Shown here: one piece after another, positions 1 through 14,821 of the stretch | How the letters are laid out: each line of letters starts with the position of its first letter | Numbering within the stretch: position 1 is the stretch's first letter | NCBI GenBank assembly: GCA_963818475.1 | Contig: CAWFSF010000006.1 | Span: forward strand, 1,568,001 to 1,632,000 | Direction of reading: 5' to 3' | Origin: Nitrospirota bacterium | GTDB taxonomy: Bacteria; Nitrospirota; UBA9217 | DNA length: 64,000 nt | Translations under genes and position numbers: made by a program | Notes under the pieces: model-generated | What the model was told of the DNA's origin: nothing | The model's database searches: none | Seen by the model: the letters and a program-made list of their open reading frames with translations, nothing else

Positions 1-1523
1 CACGTCCGCGGTCTGGACATAGCCCCGGCCTTCGAACTCCGCCTGTTCCTCGGTCAGTCCCATCTGCTCGCGCACCGCGGTCATGGTCCGGCGGGCACGC
101 GCCGTGGACCAGCCGATATCGTCGCCGTAGACGGCAGCGGTGCGCCGGTCGAGCCGCTGGTTGCTGGTATAGCCGACAAAGCGCAGGCGGACGTTGGTCT
201 TGTCCTTGATCTCGTCCATGAGCTGCCGCAACCGCTCGGTATAGCCGTCGGGCAGGACCGGGTCGCCGTTTTCGAACAGGATCGGATCGATGCGCGCCCG
301 ACGGCGGGTCATAGACCTTGGTGACCGTTTCGGCGCCGGCATCTTCCGGACACAGCCGCGGCTCGTCAGGCAGGTCCTGGAGCGGATCGTCATGCCAGAA
401 CTCGACCTCGACGCGCCGGTTCATGGCCCTGCCCTGCGGCGTGTCGTTGGAGGCCACCGGCTGCGACGCTCCCTTGCCGTCGCTTTCGACCGCGACATTG
501 GACAACCTCAGAGCGTCCTGGACGGCGAGGGCAACGCGCCGGGCCACCGCCTTCGACAGCCCCAGCTGGTCGCCGTAGATGCGCTCGTCGCGCCCTTCCA
601 GCGGGGTGTTGTCGGTATAGGCGGTGAACTTGACGACGATATTCTCCTTGCCTTTCAGATTGATCAGCGCCTGTCTGATCTGCTGCAGAAATTCTTCCGG
701 CACGGTCACCATGCTCTCTTCGTAATGCATGGGCGCAATCAGGTTCTTGACGCGGGCACGATGGGAATGGCCTTCCTTGTAACGCAATTTGCAGACCGTC
801 TCGGTGCGGCAGACCTTGACGCGGTTCACCTGCCGGGGGACGATCACTTCCTTTTCGACCATCTTTTCGCTGATCTCGTCATACCAGACCTCAACCTCCA
901 CCCGCCGGTTGAGCGCCCGGCCGGCCTCGGTCGCATTGCTGGCGACCGGCTGGCTGTCACCCAGCCCCTCATAGGAGATGGCTTCCGGGGGAAGCCCGAG
1001 GGCGCGCTGGCAATATTCGGCGGTGGTGCCCGCCCGTTCCCGGGACAGGCCGGTATTGTCGCCGTATTTCGCTTGCAGGGGGCCGCTGAGCGGCTGGGAA
1101 TCGGCGTGGCCGACAAAGTGAAGACGCACATTGGCGCGATTGCGCATGCTTTCGAGCACGCCGCGCAGAAGCGCCACATACTCCTCGGGAATGTCCGCCT
1201 CACCCTGTGCGGAAACGGATGGGCGGGACCACATTCGCCAGCTTGATCGTCTTCACTTCCTTTTCGGCGACCGTGCGTTTCTCCGTGCGGTCCCCCTGGT
1301 CCTCCGCAAAAACGGACGGATCAAGGAGCCAGGGAGTGAAGGCCCTGTCCTTCGGCAGGTGCATTTCGGTCGTTTCGCCGCAGGTAGCAGCCTCCCTCGT
1401 TCCCGGGTCCGCATTCACGGTCGTTGCAGATACGGCTTCCGCACAGACGGCGGTCTCCGCTCCGGCTACGGACACAAGGAACATCAATATAAGGGCGATA
1501 CAGCGCTTCATCATTAATCCCAT
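1..1523 (-). CDS. Exported protein with at least three tandem OmpA/MotB C-terminal-like peptidoglycan-binding domains (3' end outside window; frameshifts near 1200 and 290)
   Basis: Signal peptide (MMKRCIALILMFLVSVAGA). Reading the minus strand across frameshifts gives repeated OmpA motifs: VGHADSQ..NTGLSRERA..GLGDSQPVASNATEAGRALNRRVEV; AYTDN..LGLSKAVARRV..GKGASQPVASNDTPQGRAMNRRVEV; VGYTSN..GWSTARARR..EGRG. Confidence 0.8.
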
Positions 1524-1718: not shown

Positions 1719-4700
1719 TCACGGCGGCGAGCCCCGGCGCCAGAAGATCTCGGTTTCGATGGTGAGCCGATATCCGCCATCCCACTTGCCGGCGATCTCC
1801 TTCTTCAGCGCCTTGAGACGCTTCTCTACCAGACCTTCGTTCTCGACGTCCGCCAGGTACGACAGCCGCAGCACCGAAGGCGCTTTCCGCAATTCCTTCA
1901 ACAAAAGATCGATCCTCGGCTGCCACTGCATCCGCAGCTCCGTGCTCTTCGGTTCGAACGCCCCATCGGCGATATCCATGGACACCACGTGGTGGATCGT
2001 TGCGCCGAAGTTGAAGCGCAGCATTTTGCCGCGCGTGGCGCGCTGCACCCGCGGGTTTTCGGTGGTCACCCGATAGCCGGTGGGCAGGGTGCGATCGTCC
2101 AGCTTGAGGATGAAGTTGCTGCCGCGATTCTCGTCAGGGACCACCGCGCAGGTGATATGGAAGCGCCCGTGCTCGTCGGTGGTGGCGATCAGACCGCGTG
2201 CCGTCACCACGCGCACCCCGGCAAACCCCGTTCACCCGCATCCTGCTATCCGTTCAGATCGCGATCGTCGAACACCTTGCCGATCACGTCGGTGCAGTCG
2301 AAGGTCGGGTCGGGGATGACGCGCACGGTCGCTGTCGCCACCTCCGAGAACGGTCCGCCGGTGTCTGTATTGATCACCTGCGCCTGGTTGACGTACTCGC
2401 CTTCCGAGACGCCGGCGCCCACTACCAGGAGCAGCCTGATGGTGTGCTGCTGGTTATAGCCGATGGCGAGATTATTCCACACCAATTGACGGCCGTTAAT
2501 GACCGGCTCAAGCGCGGTGCTCGTCGATGCGGCTGGAGCCTTCCACATACTTGAACCCGGCCGGCATCGTATCGACGATCCCCAGAGGGGGCAGCGTGCT
2601 GCGCAGCGTGTTCTTGAAGGTGATCGTGTAGGGAACGAGCTGACCGCGGGTGACATTGATCAGGGGGCTCGTCTTCGTGATCGAGATCTTTTCCTCAACA
2701 TATGGATCGACCGGAATATGATTGTTGAAGATCTGGTTGTCATCGGGTTGCCAGTCGAATCCAACGTGAGGCGCAGGTAGTAGGTGGTGACCGCCCCCGT
2801 CGGCGCAGTCGCGGAGACCTGCGCCTCGCATTGATCCGTGGACGGAATGGCGTCATCGGGACAGACCGGTACTGAATAAGGAACCAGCGTTCGCTGCATC
2901 GAAAATGTTGCTCGGCAGGAATAGATCAGCGACGGCCCCGCCACGTATCCCGCAGGCACTGCCGTAACCGCGATGAGGTAGTCGCGCGCCGTCGGGACAA
3001 TTCTGGCTGACTGAAGTTCAGGTCGAACTTGTAAGTTCCGTTCGCCGGCGTCACCTGGTTCTGCTGAGACGGATCGACGAAGCAGCTCGCGGGCAAAGCG
3101 GTCCCCGTTGACGCCAGCAGCATGGTGAGTGTCACCCCACCCAACGGCTTGCGCGACACCGCATCGTAGACGACGCCGTTCGCCGGGATGACGGTTTGCG
3201 TCGGGTTCTCGGCGGGCAGCACGTTCAGATCATCGTCGCTCTTGATCGGCGTCGGCCAGGGACCGTGACAGCTCGGCCTGGTTCAGCACTACGGTCGCCG
3301 CTTTTGAGATCCGTCCTGAGGACAGCCTCGAAGACGATCGTCAGGGTTTCGTTCGCCTCGATATTAGCCGATGACGTTGAGCGTGGTGCCGTTGACTACA
3401 GCACTGACTCCTGTCGTCCCGGTCGAACTCGTGACAACGACATTCTGAATCGAACCCTGGAACCTCGGCATAGCGTTCAGGCGATCGATCTCATCGACCA
3501 GCGAGATATTTGCTACCCGAATACCAGTCGGGTTTTGTATGACGATGGTGTAGCGCAGCCGGTCACCCGGGTTCGCAATCGGTTTGTCCACGGTCTTCTG
3601 GAGCGTCACGACCGGAATCGGAACGGTCAGCGGCGGCGCAGCGGCCGTGGCCACGTAATCGTTGAGCCCGCCGATGCCGTCCGCGCCGGTGCGTTCATCG
3701 CTGTTCGCGCCATCGAGGCTGGTCCAGCGGACGGTCACGCTGTTGGTCAGCGTCTGACCGGCGCTGACCGTATCGAGCACCTTCACCTCATAGGTGATGG
3801 TGACCGTTGTCCCTTCAACGATGTCGATGTCAGCGGTCGGGGTGACCGGCCAGGCCCAGGTGAGGGTCTGGGCCGTGGTGCTGCCGTCGCCGGTCTGCAT
3901 CGGGTCGGTGATGGTATTGCCGGTGCCGTTGACCGTGGCACGTGCCGACCTGATAGGCCAGGCCCAGGCTCAGCATGTCGACGAGGCCGGCATCAAAGGC
4001 ATCGGAGAAGTTGGCGCCCGAGGCTGCCGTCAGGGTCACGGTGTAGGTCAGAATATCACCCGCTTTGGGTGGCGTCGTTGGACTCACGCTCTTGGTGACG
4101 GTGACGGAAGGCTCCACCACCGTCATGACGGCGGTGGTATTGCTGGCCCCCGACATCCGGGTGGCGGCATTACCGTCGATCTGGTTGTACGTATAGGAAG
4201 CGGTGTTGCTGAAGGACAGACCGGCATCGTTGCCGGCAACGTTGTTCATGCGCACCGTCACACTGACCACGATCTGTTCATTGGCCGGGATCTCGATGCC
4301 GTTGGTCGTGTCTTCGATAATTAGATCGGTACTGGTGTTGGTATTGACCGGCGTCCACGTCTGGGAACCAGAGACCTTGCTGATGCTGACCAGGGTCAGA
4401 TTCGCGCTGACCGCCCCGAGGTTGTCGAGAATGCGCACATCGTGCAGCGCCGCCGCCTGCGGGACAGCAGGCACGGTGATGGTGTAGGTGAACTCCTGGC
4501 CGATTGTTGCGGTCGTGCTCGCCGGATTCTGCTTCAGCAGCCCACCGGGCACAGGCGAGGTCAGGGTCTGCTGCGCCGTATTGGTCGGGCCATAAACCTC
4601 GCGGTCGGCAGCGCTGCCATTGGCCGGTACCGCCTCATCATCGAAGGAGTAATAGAGCGTTGCCTGGGCTGTGTTGGTCAGGGTCAGACCGGGACCGAGG

Positions 4701-7700
4701 TCCGCATCGGCCGTCACCTGATAGACCACGCGCAGAGTGTCGCCCGCCGGGATAGTGTAGGCATTGGCGACGCCGGAATCGAAGTTCCAGGTGGCGACAC
4801 CAGTAGTGGCATTGTAGACGGGGGCCAGTACCGGCAGGCTGGTGTTGGTGTTTACCAGGGTGATGGCGGTGGTGGTCACTCCGCCCTGCCGTAGACCTAC
4901 CGGCAGGGTATCCACCAGCACCGTGTCGTAGGCTGGCGCCGCGCCGCTGTTGAGGATGCTGACCGTATAGGTGATGACCTCGCCCGCGTTGATGACCGTA
5001 TCCCCGCCCGCCGCCGATGCGCTCTTGCTCACCGTCAGTATCGGCTGCAACGTGGTGACGCTTGCGGTACTCGGCCGCGTCACAAGATCCCCGGCGACGG
5101 TGTATCCGAGTGTGGCGTTGTTTGTCAGCGTCTGGCTTGTCGGCGTCTGCGCGAACGTATCGTTGTTCAGCACGCGCACGCGGTAGCGAAGCACCAGGAC
5201 GTCATTGGTCGGATTGCCGTCACTGGGGTTGACCACCGTACCCAGAGTCCAGGTAAGGGTCTGCGTGCCGCTCGGCGCAGGTGGTGTGGGCTGGACCGTG
5301 CCGAAGTAGGTGGCACTGACCATTCCCACATACTGAAGTCCCGTCGGCAACGTGTCGGTGACGCTGACATTCGTGTGGGTGCCTTCCTGCAAGCCCAAAC
5401 GCAACTCGTATTCGATCAGATCACCGATACGGACATTGGCATCGGCAGCAGTATACGTATCGCTCGCCCTCACCTTGACAAAGGCTGTGCTATCTCCGAC
5501 GATCAACGTGGTGCTGTCAGAAGCAACATAGTCGTTCGGCACGACGCCGGTTCCGCCGCGCTCATAGGCGGGGAAGTCGCCATCGAGACTAGTCCAGCGG
5601 GCGGTCGCGGTGTTGGTCAGCGCCTGACCGATCACCACGTCGCTGTTCACCAGCACATCATAGGTGACGGTGACCGTCGTCCCCGCCGTGATATCGAGAG
5701 CGCTCCAAGTGAGTGTCTGGGGGGTGCCGGTCACACTCGGTTCAGCGGGCACACCACTGATCCGCGCGGTCCCGGCAACATACGTCAGCCCCAGGCTCAG
5801 GGTATCGCTGAGCACGAGGTCATAAGCGTTGGAGGCCGGGGCCGGGGCAGCGATCAGGTTCACCGTGTACGTGAGAGTGCTCCCTGCTGTTGGCGGCGTA
5901 GCCGACGAGACGACCGTCTTGTCCACGGTAACTGCCGGTTCAGCGATGGTCAGTGCACCGCTGGTGCCGCTGGTCACTGCGCCGGCCGGAATGCCCGTAT
6001 AGGTATAGGATGCTGTATTGGTGAAGCTGACGCCGGCATTGGCAGTGGTGTTATTGGCCACGCGTGCGGTCAGCGTGATCACCGCCTGCTGGCCGGCAGG
6101 AATTGGGCCGATGGTGAGGCTTACGTTCTGGCCGGCCGTGTTGTCCGTCAGGGTGAACCGGCAGCGGCCACTGTGGCGCTCACATAGGTCAAGGCACTGA
6201 GTGCAGAGTGTCGGTGATGACCACGTTGCTGAGCGCGGCGTTGATCGGCGTGCCCGGCACGGTGATCTGGTAGGTCACCGTCTCGCCGATGGTCGCTTCG
6301 CGACGGCGACGTCAAGATCTTGGTCAGCGGCTGAACGATCACCTGGTTGGTCATCCAGACTTGTGCAGGGCGGAGGAAGCGTAGATGCGGCCATTCGCCG
6401 GCAGCGACTCAGTACTCGATGCAGTGTTGCGCTGTTGCTCCAGGTCTGGTCTGCGGCCGCGATGTCGGTATGGAAACCGATGGTGTAATCGATTGTCACG
6501 CACTGGCCCGGATTGACCGGTGTGCTGAGCACGAAGTTCATGGTGCCGCCGCGGCCGGCAGGCGGCGTATAGGTATAATCGGTCCCGGCAATGAGGGTGG
6601 TCCCGCCCACGGCCACCACCGGCGTGGTGATGCTGGTCTCATTCAGCTGGCTCGCCAGCAGGTCGGTAAGCTGGACATTGTAGGCCGGCGCCAGGCCGTT
6701 GTTGCAGGACGTCAGCTGGAAGTTCATTACATCGGTGGCAATGTTGACCTGGTACGGATCGGCCGAGGTACCGGCACCGGTGCGGCCGGTGCCCAGATCG
6801 ACCTTGGCTGATCGCGCTCATCTGCGGCTGACGCACGTCGACCCGCTCCGTGGTCGTCAATCGGGCGGGATAGACCGCCGGATCGCCGCCCGTATAGGAA
6901 AGCTTCGCCAGGTTGTCGAGCAGAATGGACGTGTCATAGCCCACACCCACCGGCGGCGCGTCAGTCACGACCTTCGCGACATACCGGATCACCAGGGCGT
7001 CGTCAGTCGATATGCCGTCCGGCGTGTTGATGATGTCGCCGAACTCCCAACGCAAGGTGCCGGTGGCGCCGGAGACCGGCTGTACCCCCAGGGTGTAACT
7101 GAAGTTCGGGCCACCGATGACGGAAAAGCTTTGCAGCGCCATGCCCACGGGCAGCGCATCCTCGACCACGACGTTCCGGGTCGTGTATTCCTGCATGTTC
7201 AGCGTCAGATCGTAGGTGACGGTGTCGCCGACGCGCAGAATCGGATGCGGTGCTGGTGGAAGGATCTCGGCATAGGAATCCGCGTAAACCGATTTGACGA
7301 TGGAGGTGTTGTCAACCGTGTAGACGGTGACCGACTGGCCGGGCCGGTGCAATAGTCGTTCGGCAGGGTTATAGTCGGACAGCCCGCGCCGGTGCGCTCG
7401 CGCCCCGGGACCGGATTACTGATCGGATCGATCGGATAGTCCTCATCGAGCGAGGTCCAGTCCACATAGGCGCTGTTGGTGAAGGAACTCACCGAGGAGG
7501 CGTCCACCACGGTCACCTGATAGGTGAGCACCAGCGACTGGCCGGCGGGAATGTCGAGACTGCCGTCGTCGTTGTCGCGGCCCCAGACCAGGGTGGTGCC
7601 GGAGGGCGTGGCGGGAGTTCGCGACAAAGCCGGTGACCGCGACGCTGTTGATCGTGGCCGTGGCGGAACCGGGGACCAGCGCTACGTTCGCCGGCAGGGT

Positions 7701-10174
7701 GTCGGTGATGTTGGCATCAAAGGCCGTGGAAGCGTAGAGGCCGCTGTTATTGGTAATCGTTATCTTATATTCGAGAATGTCGCCCACCGTGGCGGGATCG
7801 GTTGCCGGTTTGCCGGCAGGCGAGACAAAGCTCACCGTCTTGGCGGCGGTCAGGAGCGGTTCGACCACGGTCATGTTGGCGGTGGTGCCCGCGCCGCCGG
7901 CCAATTGCGTGCTATTGACGCCGTTTGCCCGGTTGTAGGTGTACTACGCGCTGTTGTTGAAGAACACGCTGCTCTGGTTGGGGGCGCTGTTCAGCAGCTC
8001 CACGGTGATCGCGATCTTCGCCTGGCCATTGGCAGGGATATCGATGCCGGTGACCGTGTCTTCAAGGATGAGCGAGTTGCCGGTGCCCGTATTGCTGAGC
8101 GCCCAGGCGCCGCCCGTTACCACCCGCGCGCTCACAAAGCGCAGGTTCGCCGGCAGAGTATCCAGGATCCTCACGTCGTACAGGGGCACGGCGGTCGGGG
8201 TCGCGGGCACGGTGATGGTGTACTCGAACCGCTCGCCGATCGTGGCGGTCGTTTTTGCTGGGTTCGCCTTCGCCAGCGGGCCGGGAATCAGGATCGTCAC
8301 GATGGTGGGATCTTCGTCGCCCGCCACATCGGGCGAGGCCACGCCGTTGACGTAGGGATCATCGCTCAGGGCGGTGAAGCCGCCGGCGGCGTTCAGGGTC
8401 GCCTGGTTGGAGACCGTGGCGCCGTTGGCAAGGCCCGATTTCAGGGTGATGTCGAACTCGACCACGAGCTGGCCCCCGACCTTGACATCCAGAGCAGGCG
8501 CGCCAGAGATCTGCAGCAGGCCCGAGGTGGAATTAAAGCTCCAGGTGGCGCTGTATCCGGGGGCCCGTCGCAATGCGTGACGATTGCTGAAACGTGGCCG
8601 GATCGAAGTAGGTCAGGTTCAGCGTGTCGTTGATCGTGACCGTATTGATCGTTCTGATCAACATTGAAGACGCGCAGCGTATAGCGCAGGGTGTCACCCG
8701 GCAGCCGCCGTGGTAGCGGGGTTCGCAAGACTGGTCAGGTTCTGGACCGTCTTCTCGAAGTAGTAGCCGTGCAGTGGCCGCCGTGACGGTCTGGCTGTCC
8801 TGATAGTCAATGAAGTCGCCGGCGTGCCGTCGGTGAGCGTTCTGGTCGAATTCGCGGCGGCCGGCATAGGTACTGTTCGCGCTGAACCACTGGGTGGCGC
8901 CGGCGACATTGGTAAGCGTTGCGCCGTCATTGGTGAAACCCGGGATCGAGCTGCGTCTGGTAGGTGATGATCAGGTGCTGCTCGGGTGCGATCGGGCCCG
9001 CGGCATCGGTCATGGTCAGGCTGAGCTGGCAACCGCTGTAGGAGACCGTGTAGTCGGTGCCCGGAGCCAATGTCTTGACCAGGGTGGTGCCGTCGGCCTG
9101 GACGATCCTGGCGCTGAGCGTGGCAGTGGGGTCGGTGGCGCACATGCCGACCGGGAGCTTGTCGGCGATCGTTGCGTTCCAGGCGTCGCCGCCGCCGCTG
9201 TTCTGGACATCGATGGTGAAGGCCGCTGTGTCGCCCAGGTTCAGGGCCGTCGCCGGGCTCGTCTTGTTGACCACGAGATCGGGCGCCACGATGGTCATCG
9301 GCGCAGAGATGCCCGACTCGCCCGGGAGGGGGTTAAAGAATTCGTTGGAATCCACGATGCCGTCCTCATCGAGATCGATCCACCGTGAAAATTGCCACTT
9401 GGCAGTGTTGGTGAACTGCCTCCCTGGCACGTTCGTCGGCGTGTCATCGAGGACCACCGTCACCTCGACCACGATCTGCTCCCCGGCCGTGAGATTGGGA
9501 AGCGTGAAGTGGAGGTTCTTATCGCCCAGCTACCCAGAGTTACTGATCGGCACCGGTGTGCCGCTGCCTTTGTAGTAGGCGTTCAGGCTTACAAGCGTGA
9601 GATCGACGATACCGTCCGACGCCCGTCGTGGTGAGATCGTCCCAGACCTCGAATGCTGCCCAGGTCGTTCGGTGACGGGTCGCTCGCCAACGGGAAAATG
9701 TCATGACCGGGATCGTGAGCGTGTAGGTGAAGGGCAGACCGATGGTGGCCGTGGATGCAGGGGTCTTCTTATCGATGGTCTCAGCGGGGATCATGATATC
9801 CTGGCATGCGCCGCTGAAAGCCCCCTCTTCGGGGAGTTAACTACCCAGAGCTTGTGATCGATATTGGAACACGCCATATTGCCGGCGAACCAAACGTTGT
9901 CGAAGACAATGAGATATATCGTGGGGTCATTGGTTTGAAAGTTGATGGTTGCGGTCAGCGGATTGGACTGCGGCCAGTTCTGGAACGTGCAAGTCGTGTC
10001 GATCGTGATCTGGACAGGAGAGGTGCCGAGAACATTACCGTCAATCACGCCGAAGTACGGGGCCTCGGAGCAAAATTTCTCCGCCGCCTGCGCGGAGGAG
10101 GCCACACCCAGCACCAGGGCGAAGAGGAGCAGCAGCGGGAAACCGAGCCTGGCGCCGCGTGCTGTCAGGGCCAT
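1719..10174 (-). CDS. Giant (~2800 aa) DUF11 / fimbrial isopeptide-domain repeat surface protein with SdrD-B-like C-terminus; split by many frameshifts
   Basis: Consecutive minus-strand fragments (9791-10519, 9540-9794, 8927-9472, 7944-8573, 7443-7904, 7205-7627, 6639-7352, 6275-6727, 3830-6082, 3364-3900, 2926-3222, 2508-2831, 2246-2656, 1719-2216) belong to one protein; most carry K..[A/P]..G[D/E].lTYTi.......a.d..l.DTLP.gl..v...N.A repeats. Signal peptide LLLLFALVLGVASSAQA; C-terminal VIGKVFDDRDLNG..TTDEHGRFHI. Start could alternatively be GTG at 10330. Confidence 0.85.
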
Positions 10175-10360
10175 ACGAAAACGTTCCCACTTCCAGGCCT
10201 TCCTGATCGAACACGTTCCCCGCAGCTTGCCGCGCAACGGCAACGCCGAGGCGACCCCAAGTACCTGGGCTGCTCGAACGAGAAGGCCTGTAAAAAATGA
10301 AATGATTATGTTTTTCAAATTGTTATGCACTATTTGGCTACAACGTTGGGTCACGAGTGT

Positions 10361-10417
10361 AAAAAAAAAGCCGCCAAAAAATAGTCCTGTCGTGACAGGC
10401 GCTATACTTTGGCGGCT
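10361..10417 (-). terminator. Intrinsic terminator (riboswitch expression platform)
   Basis: Minus strand AGCCGCCAAAG-TATAG-CG-CCTGTC-AC-GACAGG-A-CTAT-TTTTTGGCGGCT followed by a T run; its 5' arm overlaps the aptamer 3' end. Confidence 0.85.
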
Positions 10418-10522
10418 CGACGGGCATGGAAAGCAAAGCTGGACCATCCTGCGTAGTCCTTGCTTTCTGTAGCCTCGGAACTCTGCGTCCCAAGGTTTCC
10501 CCTGGTTTGCTCTGAGCAAAGT
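10406..10522 (-). ncRNA. Cyclic dinucleotide GEMM-I (c-di-GMP-I class) riboswitch aptamer, A20 variant (candidate 3',3'-cGAMP sensor)
   Basis: Minus strand: P1 ACTTTG/CAAAGT; J1/2 CTCAGA; GC-AAA-CCAGGG-GAAA-CCTTGG-GAC-GC-A; P3 with CTAC...ATG tetraloop-receptor-like motif; 3' GCCGCC. Matches GEMM-I architecture; located in the 5' leader of the DUF11 gene. Confidence 0.88.
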
Positions 10523-10900
10523 TGAAAAATTATGAAATTGTCAAAGCAGCAAACGAAATCACTGAAATCTATACAACTTTAGCATTATACTGCTTTGCTG
10601 TCAAGAATCAGAAGAAATAAAATTCTAGATAGAACAACCATTAGTATTCACAAGTTAAAGCGGTCACGGTTTTAGTGGGTCTTCATCTTCACGTTGGCCA
10701 TACTACATGGGAAACTTAAAGTGGTATGTGATTTTAAATACAAAAGTATTATGTGATTCTGATTACATTTTATAAGCGAAGATAGCAATAAAGCTGTGAT
10801 TGAAGTCACATCGCAAATTGACTCGGGAGTCGGAACAGGCCTAAAGAAACCACGAATCACGATGCGAAGTATACTGATTTAGTTGCATGCATCAGGCGCA

Positions 10901-10929
10901 AGAATAATAGTAATGTAACATTCTGTCAA
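10901..10929 (-). promoter_or_regulatory. Sigma70-type promoter
   Basis: TTGACA-17 nt-TATTCT on the minus strand; homologous to the promoter at 15196-15224. Confidence 0.6.
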
Positions 10930-11457
10930 GAACAATTGTCCATTTATTCGGGTGAATTTAAGGGGATGTGTCAAATTTGCAACAAAGAGCTAAAAGGCAG
11001 GCTATGTGTCGGTTTTAATGTTTCATCACCTCGTCCACTTCTTCAGAATCTCCCTCGCAGCCACCACGCCGGAGATCGATGCCTGAATCAGGCCGCGGGT
11101 CACTCCGGCGCCGTCGCCGACAGCGAAGAGGTTCTTCACTTCTGTTTCGAGCCCGGAGGTGAGCTTCAGCTTCATGGAATAGAATTTCACCTCCACGCCG
11201 TAAAGCAGCGTATCTCCCGAATTAACACCCGGCGCCACATTGTCCAAAAGCCTCGAGCATTTCCATGATATTGTGAAGATGGCGGTAGGGAAGGACAAAG
11301 CTCAGATCACCGGGCGTTGAATCCTCGAGCGTCGGCCGCACTGATCCCTCCGCTGCCCAGGAGGTTCGCCAGGCCGGCTATGTACTTGCCGTACGCGATC
11401 GGCTCGTCAAAGGGGCTCGTGAACTCCGTGCTCACCAGGAGGGCGAAGTTCGTGTTC
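10919..11457. repeat. Direct repeat (copy B) of 15214-15874
   Basis: Near-identical to the 3' ~480 bp of the 15376-16764 gene and partly to its downstream intergenic DNA; ~65-bp internal deletion and a few substitutions. Confidence 0.95.
11026..11457 (-). pseudogene. Displaced 3' fragment of the FAD-dependent oxidoreductase gene
   Basis: Encodes NTNFALLVSTEFTSPFDEPIAYGK... and ...GDGAGVTRGLIQASISGVVAAREILKK, identical to the C-terminus of 15376-16764; no 5' part. Confidence 0.9.
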
Positions 11458-11524: not shown

Positions 11525-14500
11525 TCACCGCAGCTGCATGACTGAAAATGTCTGGCCGGAAATATTTATAGTGCCGACCCTGCGAACCGACGTCTGGTTC
11601 TGAGAGACTGCGTAAGTCAGGGTCCCATTGCCCGTGCCGCTTCCATTCGAAACCCTTATCCAGCTGTCGTCACTTGTGGCAGTCCAGCCGCATTGGCTGT
11701 CCACGTTCACGGTAACACTGCCTGTGCCTTCCGCTCCATTGAACAGGCTGCTCTTGGGGGATATGATAGGCGTGCAGGAACCGGAGACCCCTCTGGTAAA
11801 CGAAGCAAAGATCGTATGCCCGGCGTTTACGTTTGTGAACGTATAACCGGGCGCCGTTCCGACCGATACCCCGTCCACCAGCACATCTGAAATGTTATAA
11901 CCAGTATCAGGGGTGATTGTGAACGCCTGGGGTTCGCTGTAGATCACGGTGATGTCCCCGGCCGGAGTGATGCTTCCGTTAGGCCCTGCCGCAGCAACGA
12001 TGTATGGGTTAAATGTCGCACTAACCATGCAATCCGCTGTTACTGTTGCGGTCGTAAATATGCTTCCATCGAGCGTGCCCCCGCACCCGGTCACCGAGGC
12101 GATGTGATACCCTGTGTCCGGCGTAATCGTGAACAACATACTTTGTCCGTAATCTACCATCTGGGCCGTCGAGGGATTCATGTTCCCGTTGGCTCCAGGG
12201 GCAGGGATAACAGTGTAACGATTGATCTCAAACGAGGCGGTAACCGTGCAATCCGCCGTTATGGCTGCAGTCGTAAATGTGCTTCCGTCGAGCGTGCCCC
12301 CGCACCCGGTCACCGAGGCGATGTGATACCCAGTGTCCGGCGTAATCGTGAACAACGAACTTTGTCCGTGCTCTACCGTCTGAGCTGTCGAGGGATTCAT
12401 GTTCCCGTTGGCTCCAGGGGCAGGGATAACAGTGTAACGATTGATCTCAAACGAGGCGGTAACCGTGCAATCCGCCGTTATGGCTGCAGTCGTAAATGTG
12501 CTTCCGTCGAGCGTGCCCCCGCACCCGGTCACCGAGGCGATGTGATGTCCTATATCCGGCGTAATCGTGAACAACGCACTTTGTCCGTGATCTACCGTCT
12601 GGGCTGTCGAGGGATTCATGCTCCCGCTGGCTCCAGGGGCAGGGGTAACAGTGTAACGATTGATCTCAAACGAGGCGGTAACCGTGCAATCCGCCGTTAT
12701 GGCTGCAGTCGTAAATGTGCTTCCGTCGAGCGTGCCCCCGCACCCGGTCAGCGAGGCGATGTGATGCCCGGTGTCCGGCATAATTGTAAACGACGCACTT
12801 TGTCCGTAACCCACCGTCTGAGGACCTGCGGGACTGATAGCCCCATTTACCCCTGCCGAGGTGGTAATGGTGAGCGGCGGAGCGAGATTTATCGTTACGG
12901 ATAACGCATCCTCAGCTGTATTGCCGATGCTGTCGGCTGCCCTCACGGTAAAATTAAATGTACCGGCCGCAGCTGTTGTGCCCGATATGGCACCGTCTGA
13001 ACTAAACGACAGACCTGCAGGCAAGGCCCCTGATACCACTGACCAGGCGTACGGGCTCACACCGTCTGTGACAGTCAGGGTTTGACTGTAGGATACGCCT
13101 TGCATGCCGGAAGTCAGGGACGATGTGGTAATAGTGAGTGGTTGATAAATCATTATACTAAGGCTGGCCGTTGTGGAAGCCGACACCGCATCCGTCACCT
13201 GTATGGTAAAACTGAAAGTTCCTGCTGTCGTTGCTGTGCCGGAAATTATTCCTGTCAAGCTGTCGAGTGTCAATCCTGACGGCAGGCTTCCGGCGATAAT
13301 CGACCATGCATAAGGTGATGTGCCACCTACGGCAGTCAACGTCGTGGTGAATGGCATGTTCGTTTGGCCGAATCTCGACAGCTGGGGTGAAATAACATGA
13401 AATGATGTATCCCTGAATTTTTTCGTAAAACCGCCATTGGGAAATTGAGCTCCTTGTCCTGTTACATAGACATTGCCGATCAGGTCCACTGCGATGCTCC
13501 ACGGCCATTCACCGATTATATGGTCAGATTGTTTAGTCCACAATTCATTACCGAAAGAATCATATTTTCTGATCAGTGAGTATGGCCCAGTGAGCCGCGT
13601 ATAGCCCAAGACATAAGCATTTCCCATGTTATCCGTGGTAACGCTCATTGCCTCGCTGTACCAGCCTTTCGGGGCAGGAGTCGCCCACCATCTGAGGTTT
13701 CCGCTGGAATCATAGGACATGATGGCCCACATATAACCGGATAAGAAACGTCCTGCTATAAAGCTGTTGCCGGCAAAATCCACAGCGATATCCCAGCCGG
13801 ATTCTTCGCACCAGTTGGGGTCGCAGGGCGCATAACTTAAATAATATGACCTTTCCCACAGGAGAACACCTGTTGCACTGAGTTTGACCGTCAGCATGTC
13901 ATAACCCGTTGTTGAACCCATGCGGTGACCGCTACCTGTTAGATATGCATTGCCGAGAGCATCAACAGCAATGGAATGTGCACTCCCGCCGCCGCTATCG
14001 TAAAAGTTTTTCCATATCTTATTGCCTGAAGCATCATACTTGATCGTGACATAACCTATCTTAGTTCCTGTATCATCCTTTCCCCCATCGCACACATAAA
14101 CATTACCCGCACTGTCGGTTGCAACGCCTGAACGGCCTGAGTAAGCCTTATGAAGGTACTCGGACTTCGTCCATTGCACCGTACCTGAAGCATCATATTT
14201 AACGAGCACCAAATCAACATCCCAAAATGTTCCACTGTCTCCGACAACATAGATATTGCCCGTGTTGTCAATGGCGATGCTGTTCGCATGGTCGTAGCCT
14301 GTATTTCGATGAGTTCTTCTCCAAATCTCGTTACCTGCGCTGTCATATTTAACAATTAAAAAATCAGTTCCGCCTAACTCATTATAAATTGATCCCACAG
14401 TATAATAATTGCCGTCTGGATCGAATGCAGATCCGGTGTTCCTCCAGTTGCCGGGGAAATGTGCCCACTCTTCAACAATAAAATGATCGTCAACTGGCAG

Positions 14501-14821
14501 CATGAGGTTTTTCGATGCCACTGTGTTTTCCGCATCAGCGGCCTGCACCGTGAAACTGAATGCACCTGTTGAAGACGGCCTCCCGGAAATTAATCCCGTT
14601 GCGCCGTCTAATTGGAGCCCCGGCGGCAGTGTTCCTAGTGTGACTGTCCATGCATATGGAGGCAGTCCACCAGTGATATCAACCGATTGGCGATAATCGC
14701 TACCCACCGAACCTTGCAATAAATAATCAGTTATTATTGCAGGAACAGCTTGTGCATATCCGGAAAATAAAACGACATAAAAAACCGCAAAAGCGAAAAC
14801 CTTGAAGATCTCTTTTTTCAT
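11525..14821 (-). CDS. Secreted surface protein: putative Ig (He_PIG-like) domains, SBBP-type beta-propeller, InlB-B/Flg_new-like repeats, C-terminal BACON-like domain
   Basis: Signal peptide; GG..PY.W....G.LP.GL.l....G.ISG.p...G.F.FTV.a.D x3; repeats of IAVD..GN.YV.G......D....KYD.SG...W; FTITPDTGYHIASVTGCGG repeats; C-terminal C.WTA.S...WI...GSG.G.GT..Y.V..N.....R.GTI.I.GQTFSV.Q. Confidence 0.85.
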   Translation of the reverse strand: MKKEIFKVFAFAVFYVVLFSGYAQAVPAIITDYLLQGSVGSDYRQSVDITGGLPPYAWTVTLGTLPPGLQLDGATGLISGRPSSTGAFSFTVQAADAENTVASKNLMLPVDDHFIVEEWAHFPGNWRNTGSAFDPDGNYYTVGSIYNELGGTDFLIVKYDSAGNEIWRRTHRNTGYDHANSIAIDNTGNIYVVGDSGTFWDVDLVLVKYDASGTVQWTKSEYLHKAYSGRSGVATDSAGNVYVCDGGKDDTGTKIGYVTIKYDASGNKIWKNFYDSGGGSAHSIAVDALGNAYLTGSGHRMGSTTGYDMLTVKLSATGVLLWERSYYLSYAPCDPNWCEESGWDIAVDFAGNSFIAGRFLSGYMWAIMSYDSSGNLRWWATPAPKGWYSEAMSVTTDNMGNAYVLGYTRLTGPYSLIRKYDSFGNELWTKQSDHIIGEWPWSIAVDLIGNVYVTGQGAQFPNGGFTKKFRDTSFHVISPQLSRFGQTNMPFTTTLTAVGGTSPYAWSIIAGSLPSGLTLDSLTGIISGTATTAGTFSFTIQVTDAVSASTTASLSIMIYQPLTITTSSLTSGMQGVSYSQTLTVTDGVSPYAWSVVSGALPAGLSFSSDGAISGTTAAAGTFNFTVRAADSIGNTAEDALSVTINLAPPLTITTSAGVNGAISPAGPQTVGYGQSASFTIMPDTGHHIASLTGCGGTLDGSTFTTAAITADCTVTASFEINRYTVTPAPGASGSMNPSTAQTVDHGQSALFTITPDIGHHIASVTGCGGTLDGSTFTTAAITADCTVTASFEINRYTVIPAPGANGNMNPSTAQTVEHGQSSLFTITPDTGYHIASVTGCGGTLDGSTFTTAAITADCTVTASFEINRYTVIPAPGANGNMNPSTAQMVDYGQSMLFTITPDTGYHIASVTGCGGTLDGSIFTTATVTADCMVSATFNPYIVAAAGPNGSITPAGDITVIYSEPQAFTITPDTGYNISDVLVDGVSVGTAPGYTFTNVNAGHTIFASFTRGVSGSCTPIISPKSSLFNGAEGTGSVTVNVDSQCGWTATSDDSWIRVSNGSGTGNGTLTYAVSQNQTSVRRVGTINISGQTFSVMQLR
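12030..12790. repeat. Intragenic tandem repeat, 219-bp (73-aa) unit, ~3.5 near-identical copies
   Basis: TTGATCTCAAACGAGGCGG recurs at ~12222, ~12441 and ~12660. Confidence 0.9.

Follow-up and report, generated by a model that had tools for sequence, protein, structure and literature searches.

A GEMM-I riboswitch of an A20/G48/A.C subclass in an uncultured Nitrospirota bacterium, with 3',3'-cGAMP as a candidate ligand

Introduction

In GEMM-I riboswitches, the c-di-GMP-I family of Rfam, the ligand is contacted by positions G20, A47 and C92 (PMC5888326, PMC6140456). Riboswitches for cGAMP (3',3'-cyclic GMP-AMP) are known from Geobacter as GEMM-Ib members such as Gs1761 and Gm0970 (PMC6456294, PMC8835794, PMC6140456, PMC5888326), and an A20G substitution turns Gmet_0970 from cGAMP-selective to selective for cyclic di-GMP (c-di-GMP) (PMC6456294). 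Gm0970 is about 1600-fold selective for cGAMP, and Cbe 1-2, a natural A20 aptamer, prefers c-di-GMP (PMC8835794, PMC6140456). On the enzyme side, GSU1937, with a GGDDF motif, is the second cGAMP contributor in G. sulfurreducens (PMC8835794). The Goldilocks model holds that Ser348 combined with GGEEF is inactive and that natural Ser/Thr348 enzymes carry GGDE[F/Y] exclusively (PMC6456294). In these papers, work on cGAMP riboswitches is confined almost entirely to Geobacter; their abundance there was called unusual, and the existence of other cGAMP-sensing RNAs was posed as a question (PMC8835794). Here, a GEMM-I riboswitch is described in a 64,000-nucleotide (nt) stretch of a Nitrospirota genome (GenBank assembly GCA_963818475.1, contig CAWFSF010000006.1, positions 1,568,001 to 1,632,000), hereafter the window; positions are those of the window, and features lie on its minus strand unless stated otherwise. 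The element precedes a giant DUF11-repeat surface-protein gene and an OmpA-domain reading frame. From its sequence, it is read as a functional cyclic-dinucleotide riboswitch that would switch these genes on, with 3',3'-cGAMP as the most likely ligand, a reading to which a probability of about one half is assigned.

Like the Geobacter GEMM-Ib riboswitches, the window aptamer combines the GEMM-I fold with A20, A47 and C92, a terminator-based ON arrangement and surface or extracytoplasmic targets, in a genome that also contains G20 aptamers and Ser348-type GGDEF enzymes. It differs from them in its Nitrospirota host and, going by the published descriptions, may also differ in G48 and in an A.C combination where an A49-U90 pair is usual. 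With Vc2 and the RF01051 model it shares the P1/P2/P3 layout, the GAAA cap, A47 and C92, and it scores above the gathering score; in contrast to them, G20 is replaced by A, A48 by G and A49-U90 by A.C. Cbe 1-2 and the Vc2 G20A mutant likewise carry A20 on a GEMM-I scaffold outside Geobacter. The kind of riboswitch is already known, and what stands out here is the A20/G48/A.C signature and its abundance in Nitrospirota. A literature search returned no report of a Nitrospirota cGAMP riboswitch or of this A20 subclass, with an earlier mention possible in the two founding cGAMP-riboswitch papers or the 2016 Hypr GGDEF paper.

Architecture of the Aptamer

An earlier note on the window, prepared from the letters alone, had described a complete GEMM-I aptamer with A at the position of Vc2 G20. 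In a search with Infernal (cmscan), the Rfam model RF01051 (c-di-GMP-I; gathering score 35 bits) matched 10408-10521 on the minus strand with 50.4 bits (E = 6.9e-07) over all 87 model positions, and model position 11 is indeed an A, so that both points were confirmed. Across the whole 64 kb, a tRNA and RF01051 were the two matches above the gathering score, and no other riboswitch was found. A covariance model of the subclass, R1 (see below), scores the window 84.6 bits at 10404-10524. The parts of the aptamer are as follows.

10404-10524, minus strand: GEMM-I (c-di-GMP-I family) aptamer of the A20/G48/C90 subclass (RF01051 and R1 scores as above)
10517-10522, minus strand: P1 5' strand ACUUUG, forming six of six pairs with 10406-10411; four of the six P1 pairs change on both sides in relatives
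10511, minus strand: A at the Vc2 G20 equivalent, Rfam model position 11, consensus G (cmscan alignment, coordinate check)
10483-10484, minus strand: A47-equivalent A (10484), then G at the A48 position (10483) (cmscan alignment, relatives)
10412-10414, minus strand: C(90)-G-C(92), with the C92 equivalent at 10412 (3' gCC intact in the cmscan alignment)
10406-10411, minus strand: P1 3' strand CAAAGU, doubling as the 5' arm of the terminator (minimum free energy fold, pairing check, terminator comparison)

The junction J1/2 reads CUCAGA (10516-10511), and the A at 10511 is its last unpaired base 5' of an invariant two-base-pair G-C/C-G helix, while the A at 10484, model position 38, is the first base past the closing of that helix. 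These two bases are 27 nt apart, as are positions 20 and 47 in Vc2 numbering; on the strength of this spacing and of the Vc2 numbering, model position 11 is taken to be Vc2 G20. The remaining contact positions, A47 and C92, are occupied by A (10484) and C (10412), both of which are invariant in an 83-row alignment of relatives. Owing to the C at 10414, an A.C mismatch stands in place of the first P3 pair, which cmscan marks as non-standard. P2 is capped by a GAAA loop that is invariant in relatives. The long P3 exceeds the model by an insert of about 30 nt and has CUAC...CAUG flanks, which are taken to resemble a tetraloop receptor.

The host genome holds eight GEMM-I matches, four with A20 and four with G20, and three of the A20 aptamers (the window copy, C6:164841-164929 and C2:146657-146788) share J1/2, A20 and G48. 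Furthermore, an independent metagenome contig, L318, carries a near-identical aptamer and terminator with compensatory changes in P2, 5' of a homologous gene. A read error at position 20 is thereby rejected, since the two genomic paralogues, L318 and all 63 high-scoring relatives (see below) have A20; the search for further A20 aptamers that the earlier note had asked for thus yielded three more in the genome itself. Chance resemblance to the family is likewise ruled out, by the RF01051 score together with covariation in alignment A1, which comprises 18 subclass sequences from other genomes and is the source of R1. In A1, 12 of 24 pairs change on both sides and none of 500 shuffles reaches the covariation score; pairing is found in 90.5% of cells, whereas shuffles give 77.4% and sliding the 3' partners lowers the share to 28-45%.

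The fourth A20 aptamer of the genome, L008 (C1:325538-325614; 40.6 bits), has another scaffold, with A48, U90 and a GCGA-type P2 loop, and its J1/2 resembles that of A20 aptamers (L414) of a genome with a close GacA orthologue. It precedes C1:325808-327478, which encodes a 556-amino-acid (aa) lipoprotein with repeated Cys-rich modules and C-terminal CXXCH motifs and without a Pfam match.

Promoter, Terminator and Predicted Mechanism

Two further elements frame the aptamer.

10576-10604, minus strand: promoter-like site, with hexamers TTGACA and TAAAGT separated by 17 nt, the latter preceded by TG (consensus scan, 10 of 12 matches)
10361-10416, minus strand: intrinsic terminator (minimum free energy fold; arm complementarity 9 of 9; kept in L318)

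The promoter-like site lies about 50 nt upstream of P1 and is recognized by its consensus match alone. The intergenic part of the window that holds promoter and leader (10501-11000) has 36% G+C, compared with 55-65% around it.

In the terminator, the outer stem is formed by GCCGCCAAAG (10416-10407) and UUUUGGCGGC (10379-10370), with an inner hairpin at 10386-10399 and nine U at 10369-10361. The minimum free energy fold of 10340-10530 forms this hairpin (-70.5 kcal/mol, z = -4.7), and none of 200 shuffled sequences is as stable. Because the 5' arm of the terminator consists of C90-G-C92 and the P1 3' strand, closure of the aptamer and formation of the terminator are mutually exclusive, from which an ON logic is predicted. 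Without ligand, the strand GCCGCC plus CAAAG may pair with its downstream complement to form the U-tailed terminator, and transcription would halt about 190 nt ahead of the start codon. When ligand is bound, C92 and the P1 3' strand could be kept in the aptamer, so that the terminator would not form and RNA polymerase would enter the gene.

The same layout, CCGCC plus the P1 3' strand with a downstream complement (at least eight of nine pairs) and a U-rich tail, was found in 21 of 32 subclass loci, and the complement tracks the changes in P1 (CAAAG/CUUUG, CAGAG/CUCUG, CAGCG/CGCUG, CAGAA/UUCUG and CAGGG/UCCUG). In the other 11 loci, the U-tail is absent or the ribosome-binding site is apparently used. 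The proposal that the 3' P1 strand is shared with a terminator, and that the switch is ON, is thus supported by the fold and by these compensatory changes. In vivo, the element is predicted to behave as a transcriptional ON switch, and it is very probably a genuine GEMM-I riboswitch aptamer with a terminator-based mechanism, as modelled here.

The A20/G48/A.C Subclass and Its Distribution

A search with R1 gave matches at E <= 1e-4 in 65 of 151 sampled Nitrospirota genomes (43%), including 25 of the 27 genomes of the host's own family; at the same threshold, none was found in four other Nitrospirota families (0/12, 0/27, 0/9 and 0/7 genomes). The 83-row alignment consists of 80 of the best approximately 84 R1 matches, with four lower-scoring or partial ones skipped, and the three copies of the host. 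A20 is present in every one of the 63 rows with a score of 63.8 bits or more; 60 of these rows combine it with G48 and C at the U90 position and three with A48 and C. The 20 lower-scoring rows comprise 12 with G20, none of them with G48, seven with A20 and one that is gapped. A20 was not forced by the search. The partner of A49 is C in 18 of 18 A1 sequences, the pair 43-101 being always A.C, and in the 83-row alignment, the metagenome alignment and an alignment from the phylum of Desulfonema, G48 occurs only together with A20. Within the host genome, R1 gives the G20 aptamers 33-39 bits, compared with 76-98 bits for the three subclass members. These aptamers form a tight subclass in which A20 covaries with G48 and C90, the A49-U90 pair being replaced by A.C.

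A20 itself is widespread. When 185,579 species genomes were scanned with an exact pattern for A20 aptamers, at least 122 loci (two of them overlapping on one contig) and at least 127 matches were obtained in many phyla, and the matches listed include Nitrospirota, Gemmatimonadota, Acidobacteriota, Chloroflexota, Omnitrophota and many Firmicutes. Among the 127 matches listed, 28 have G48, 25 of these with UCAG before A20, and 96 of the 99 matches without G48 have A48. No Firmicutes-titled A20 aptamer is among the 28 G48 matches listed, and Cbe 1-2 was compared by description only. The subclass also occurs in Gemmatimonadota, Acidobacteriota and the phylum holding a Desulfonema limicola metagenome-assembled genome (MAG); in the latter (30 loci, 151 genomes), ten rows combine A20, G48 and C, and no G20 row has G48.

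Candidate cGAMP Synthases

The host genome encodes 27 GGDEF domains, in which the Hypr position is Asp in 18, Asn in four and Ser in two, the column being absent in three fragments of split genes. One of the two Ser-type proteins, L133 (G000:C6:2265717-2266898), is a GAF-GGDEF protein with Ser348, a cross-dimer Tyr304 (N-Y-R aligned with 6D9M) and the motif GGEEF. Its best match among solved structures is the Hypr domain of GmGacA (6D9M, E = 2.7e-32), and 27 of 27 family genomes encode an orthologue with 58% identity or more. Ser, Tyr and GGEEF are kept in four orthologues (L135, L136, L137 and L140, from G001, from G002 with two copies, and from G004), and because the combination is conserved, it is not an error. 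L133 thus looks like a natural exception to the statement that Ser/Thr348 occurs only with GGDE[F/Y]. Compared with GacA (GSU1658 / Gmet_1914), L133 has the same Ser348 and cross-dimer Tyr; it differs in having GGEEF instead of GGDEF and a GAF instead of a Rec sensor domain.

The other Ser-type protein, L132 (C6:1078200-1079606), is a CHASE3-HAMP-GGDDY protein whose orthologues have Ser with GGDDF, beside an Asn paralogue. It resembles GSU1937 in combining Ser with GGDD[F/Y] behind a HAMP domain (PMC8835794) and differs from it in a motif ending in Y (GGDDY versus GGDDF) and in its CHASE3 domain. The search for a Hypr-type cyclase with the Asp-to-Ser change, which the earlier note had made a check on its proposal, therefore had a mixed outcome: two such GGDEF proteins exist, and the motifs of both depart from the validated signature. 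No cyclase of the SMODS/CD-NTase type was found in the host genome (91% complete) or in five genomes of other phyla.

The full Hypr signature (Ser348, GGDEF, non-Arg cross-dimer residue) was seen in L139 (G005, a Nitrospira sp. MAG), L369 (G007), L378 (G026), L328 and L352 (G170) and L437 (G182), whose hosts are Nitrospira, other Nitrospirota, an Acidobacteriota MAG and a genome of the Desulfonema-phylum sample. Several further GGDEF proteins combine Asn348 with a cross-dimer Tyr (L324, L344).

Ligand Specificity

3',3'-cGAMP is considered the most likely ligand because of A20, the conserved subclass and the coexistence of A20 with G20 aptamers. Both types are present in the host genome (four and four) and in three Gemmatimonadota genomes, and such coexistence argues for two distinct signals. 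In addition, the envelope targets of the three subclass aptamers of the host parallel the cGAMP regulon of Geobacter (PMC6456294). The cGAMP would come from L133, as a GacA-like GAF-GGDEF enzyme, or from L132, as a GSU1937-like CHASE3-HAMP-GGDDY enzyme; we infer both the ligand and these enzyme activities from sequence comparison. The earlier proposal that cGAMP controls the adhesin operon accordingly finds agreement in A20, in the ON logic and in the Ser-type GGDEF proteins, and falls short on the signal itself: cGAMP is not established, in view of bispecific A20 aptamers, G20 aptamers before homologous genes and deviating cyclases.

Several observations weigh against cGAMP. A20 is necessary and insufficient for cGAMP selectivity. 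The Vc2 G20A mutant binds c-di-GMP at 53 nM and cGAMP at 120 nM; for Cbe 1-2, which carries A20 naturally, the corresponding values are 30 nM and 463 nM, and "widespread bispecific binding" was reported for the class (all PMC6140456). In G312, from the Desulfonema-phylum sample, which has a close GacA orthologue (6D9M, E = 1.6e-72), those A20 aptamers that were seen carry A48 and another J1/2; it is accordingly not evident that the cGAMP rule was established on aptamers of the window subclass. Both candidate synthases, L133 with GGEEF and L132 with GGDDY, deviate from the validated Hypr signature, L133 having Ser348 and a non-Arg cross-dimer residue and lacking the central Asp of GGDEF. The co-occurrence of the subclass with Ser-type GGDEF proteins is not clean. 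Such proteins were found in one of five other-phylum genomes with the aptamer, an Acidobacteriota genome with two of them, and in two of five Nitrospirota genomes without it (judged, in these latter five, from the five to seven best GGDEF loci of each). Position 348 is Asp or Asn in each of the 19 GGDEF matches examined from four Gemmatimonadota genomes with the subclass, in which no SMODS cyclase was found. The relatives of the regulated gene point the same way. Its N-terminal domain has relatives encoded in 83 metagenome stretches; among 80 such loci, 19 have R1 matches, and 27 of the 29 matches are of the G20 type, only two (L318 and L273) having A20; all 29 lie upstream on the strand of the gene. 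Rfam models applied to 40 such loci found a riboswitch of the c-di-GMP-I clan or of c-di-GMP-II upstream in 16, among them L249 with a c-di-GMP-II riboswitch (L249:30-115). Since relatives of the gene sit behind G20 or c-di-GMP-II riboswitches, control by c-di-GMP would satisfy the biology of the gene family. Finally, the regulated gene is frame-broken in this assembly.

The strongest alternative, rated as appreciably less probable than cGAMP, is therefore a sensor of c-di-GMP, or a bispecific c-di-GMP/cGAMP sensor, in which a protonated A20 could still pair with a guanine of c-di-GMP and the adhesin would be coupled to c-di-GMP. It draws on the affinities of 30-53 nM for c-di-GMP given above, on the G20 and c-di-GMP-II riboswitches before homologous genes, on the 18 Asp-type GGDEF domains of the host, and on the four Gemmatimonadota genomes, in which no validated-type Hypr or SMODS cyclase was found. 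Nevertheless, a neutral A20 would be expected to drift between A and G, yet 63 of 63 high-scoring members have A. A separate specificity is suggested by the strict linkage of A20 to G48 and C90 and by the presence of G20 aptamers in the same genomes, and A20G reverses selectivity in the Geobacter switch (PMC6456294).

A stronger form of the cGAMP reading is only tentatively suggested: A20, G48 and A49.C90 may define a distinct GEMM-I specificity class, selective for 3',3'-cGAMP or another mixed dinucleotide, with the signal made by the conserved Ser348/Tyr304/GGEEF enzyme of the GacA type. If such a class exists and senses cGAMP, riboswitch-based cGAMP signalling would be a widespread regulator of the cell surface well beyond Geobacter; if L133 is the source, cGAMP would be made by a combination that the Goldilocks model predicts to be inactive (PMC6456294).

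It is unlikely that the subclass senses another cyclic or linear dinucleotide that is neither cGAMP nor c-di-GMP. Two further conserved changes beside the pocket (G48 and A.C), the lack of consistent co-occurrence with Ser-type GGDEF proteins across phyla, and the separate Rfam families RF03167 and RF03168 for GEMM-fold variants of unassigned ligand would suit such a ligand, whereas pocket positions 20, 47 and 92 are A, A and C as in the cGAMP class, and no candidate ligand or synthase is in hand.

For the cGAMP reading, the locus offers an abundant test case outside Geobacter, with a 121-nt A20 aptamer, a clean terminator, natural variants by the dozen, G20 aptamers for comparison within one genome and a pair of candidate synthases. 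It could show whether A20 predicts cGAMP sensing across phyla, and whether G48 and A.C add specificity.

The Regulated Gene

The genes downstream of the riboswitch are arranged as follows.

9840-10174, minus strand: start of the regulated gene, whose ATG (10174-10172) opens a Sec-type signal peptide and an N-terminal domain without a Pfam family (open reading frame map, Pfam, signal-peptide check)
1719-9839, minus strand: DUF11-repeat giant surface-protein gene, in at least 12 further frame pieces (Pfam DUF11 in nine pieces, three over cut-off)
2-1252, minus strand: OmpA-domain open reading frame, running off the window start, also with frame changes (PF00691, E = 2.1e-16)

What had been called a giant adhesin operon is present insofar as the DUF11 and OmpA genes follow the riboswitch on the same strand; the DUF11 gene, on the other hand, is frame-broken at least 13 times in the assembly. 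The first break lies near 9831-9834, and at least 13 frame changes fall between 10174 and about 1700 (about 8.4 kb), the OmpA region adding further ones. Elsewhere in the window, open reading frames are of normal length, 300-1200 codons, and the indel sites lie outside long homopolymers. Sediment-metagenome contigs from four runs, which represent related organisms other than this strain (85-95% alike) and were used for indel comparison only, show length differences of 1-2 nt at 3043, 3939, 6806, 7332, 7616, 8703 and 9831, the frame breaks of the window. Set against L243, the closest intact homologue (1510 nt compared, 89.8% nucleotide identity), the window has extra bases at 11 of 12 internal length differences. 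Homologous metagenome loci keep the reading frame open as far as the locus extends, over up to 1446 codons, in 39 of 39 cases; intact homologues of 2277-4553 aa were found in five of 30 family genomes, and behind the L318 aptamer a homologous frame stays open for at least 1438 aa.

These comparisons favour indel errors of the assembly, in a repeat gene that varies between strains, over a true pseudogene. That the switch is a relic before a decaying DUF11 pseudogene without a working product in this strain is therefore very improbable: the many frame changes amid ordinary long reading frames and away from long homopolymers would fit decay, but 11 of the 12 differences from L243 are insertions, unlike natural gene decay in bacteria, which is reported to be biased toward deletions, each piece still reads as a DUF11 protein, other genes of the assembly such as two GGDEF genes are also split, and aptamer and terminator are intact and nearly identical to those of L318. 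The split or out-of-frame genes elsewhere are the GGDEF genes at C6:304371-305841 and C6:1536413-1537673 and the AHSA1 and CBS genes after aptamers L001 and L002, which suggests indel errors scattered across the seven-contig assembly.

With the N-terminal 128 aa of the regulated gene as query, no match was found in four close relatives. For the five family genomes whose DUF11 homologues are intact, the R1 matches listed (27 more exist) include none that lies upstream of the gene on its contig and strand. No RNA run was listed for the locus among the sequencing runs; 12 DNA runs were listed, each with a share of at most 0.10.

Host Genome and Other Riboswitch Targets

The assembly comprises 4.66 Mb in seven contigs (91% complete, 6.2% contamination). 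Its RpoB shares 94%, 91%, 93% and 95% identity with those of four MAGs and 66% with its counterpart in a Nitrospira MAG. Three of the first four bear the titles Nitrospirota bacterium MFD10007.bin.2.19, Nitrospirae bacterium DeMMO3_8 and Nitrospirae bacterium GWC2_57_9, and all four carry orthologous aptamers (L073, L023, L018 and L022). The host that had been suggested only conditionally from the sequence is thus corroborated as an uncultured, non-Nitrospira lineage of Nitrospirota, RpoB being 91-95% identical to that of MAGs so titled. The fourth relative, with L022 (JBLMWN010000094.1), is titled Betaproteobacteria bacterium MAG281; in view of its RpoB (95% identical) and its orthologue of the host's C2 aptamer, it is probably a misclassified Nitrospirota bin.

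Of the host's two other subclass aptamers, one stands before a lipoprotein that contains seven Big_2 domains, the other before a cluster encoding CarboxypepD_reg, PEGA/TPR, PD40 and TPR proteins; the targets of all three are envelope proteins. Behind the G20 aptamers lie genes for a multihaem cytochrome cluster, for an AHSA1/SRPBCC protein and for two proteins with CBS domains.

L003 (C2:187261-187338) is a canonical G20 aptamer 5' of C2:181952-187239, which encodes a 415-aa Paired_CXXCH cytochrome, a beta-propeller protein and a 745-aa protein without a Pfam match; the locus looks like c-di-GMP control of an extracellular-electron-transfer-like cluster. L001 (C5:394113-394194), L002 (C2:797503-797580) and L005 (C2:778144-778224), which precede the AHSA1/SRPBCC and the two CBS-domain proteins, exceed the gathering cut-off of RF03167 (c-di-GMP-I-GGC variant). 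L002 has A, not G, at the equivalent of position 47 of that variant, and the same is assumed for L001 and L005.

Before homologues of the regulated gene, G20-type aptamers also occur in arrays on the strand of the gene, with three in L246:1643-2103, four in L257:2401-3679 and five in L302:1025-2678 (plus strand). Neighbours in these arrays are mostly about 190-230 nt apart, L302 having four at a regular period of 220 nt, and several array aptamers score high enough to pass the cut-off of a variant family in Rfam, "GGC" or "UAU". As the gene family stands under G20 aptamers elsewhere, sometimes in arrays of three to five, it could serve as a natural system for the study of regulon rewiring between dinucleotide signals. 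Other RNA elements near these homologues are a SECIS_4 match upstream in L272:1004-1041 and a tmRNA gene 2.2-2.3 kb upstream of the gene in two loci (L243:1-214 and L266:1466-1823). In the window, the gene directly upstream of the riboswitch promoter (11525-14821, minus strand) is intact; its product is a surface-type protein of 1098 aa in which He_PIG, InlB B-repeat-like, SBBP and BACON domains occur, and the locus as a whole, judged by its predicted proteins, is a cluster of cell-surface genes.

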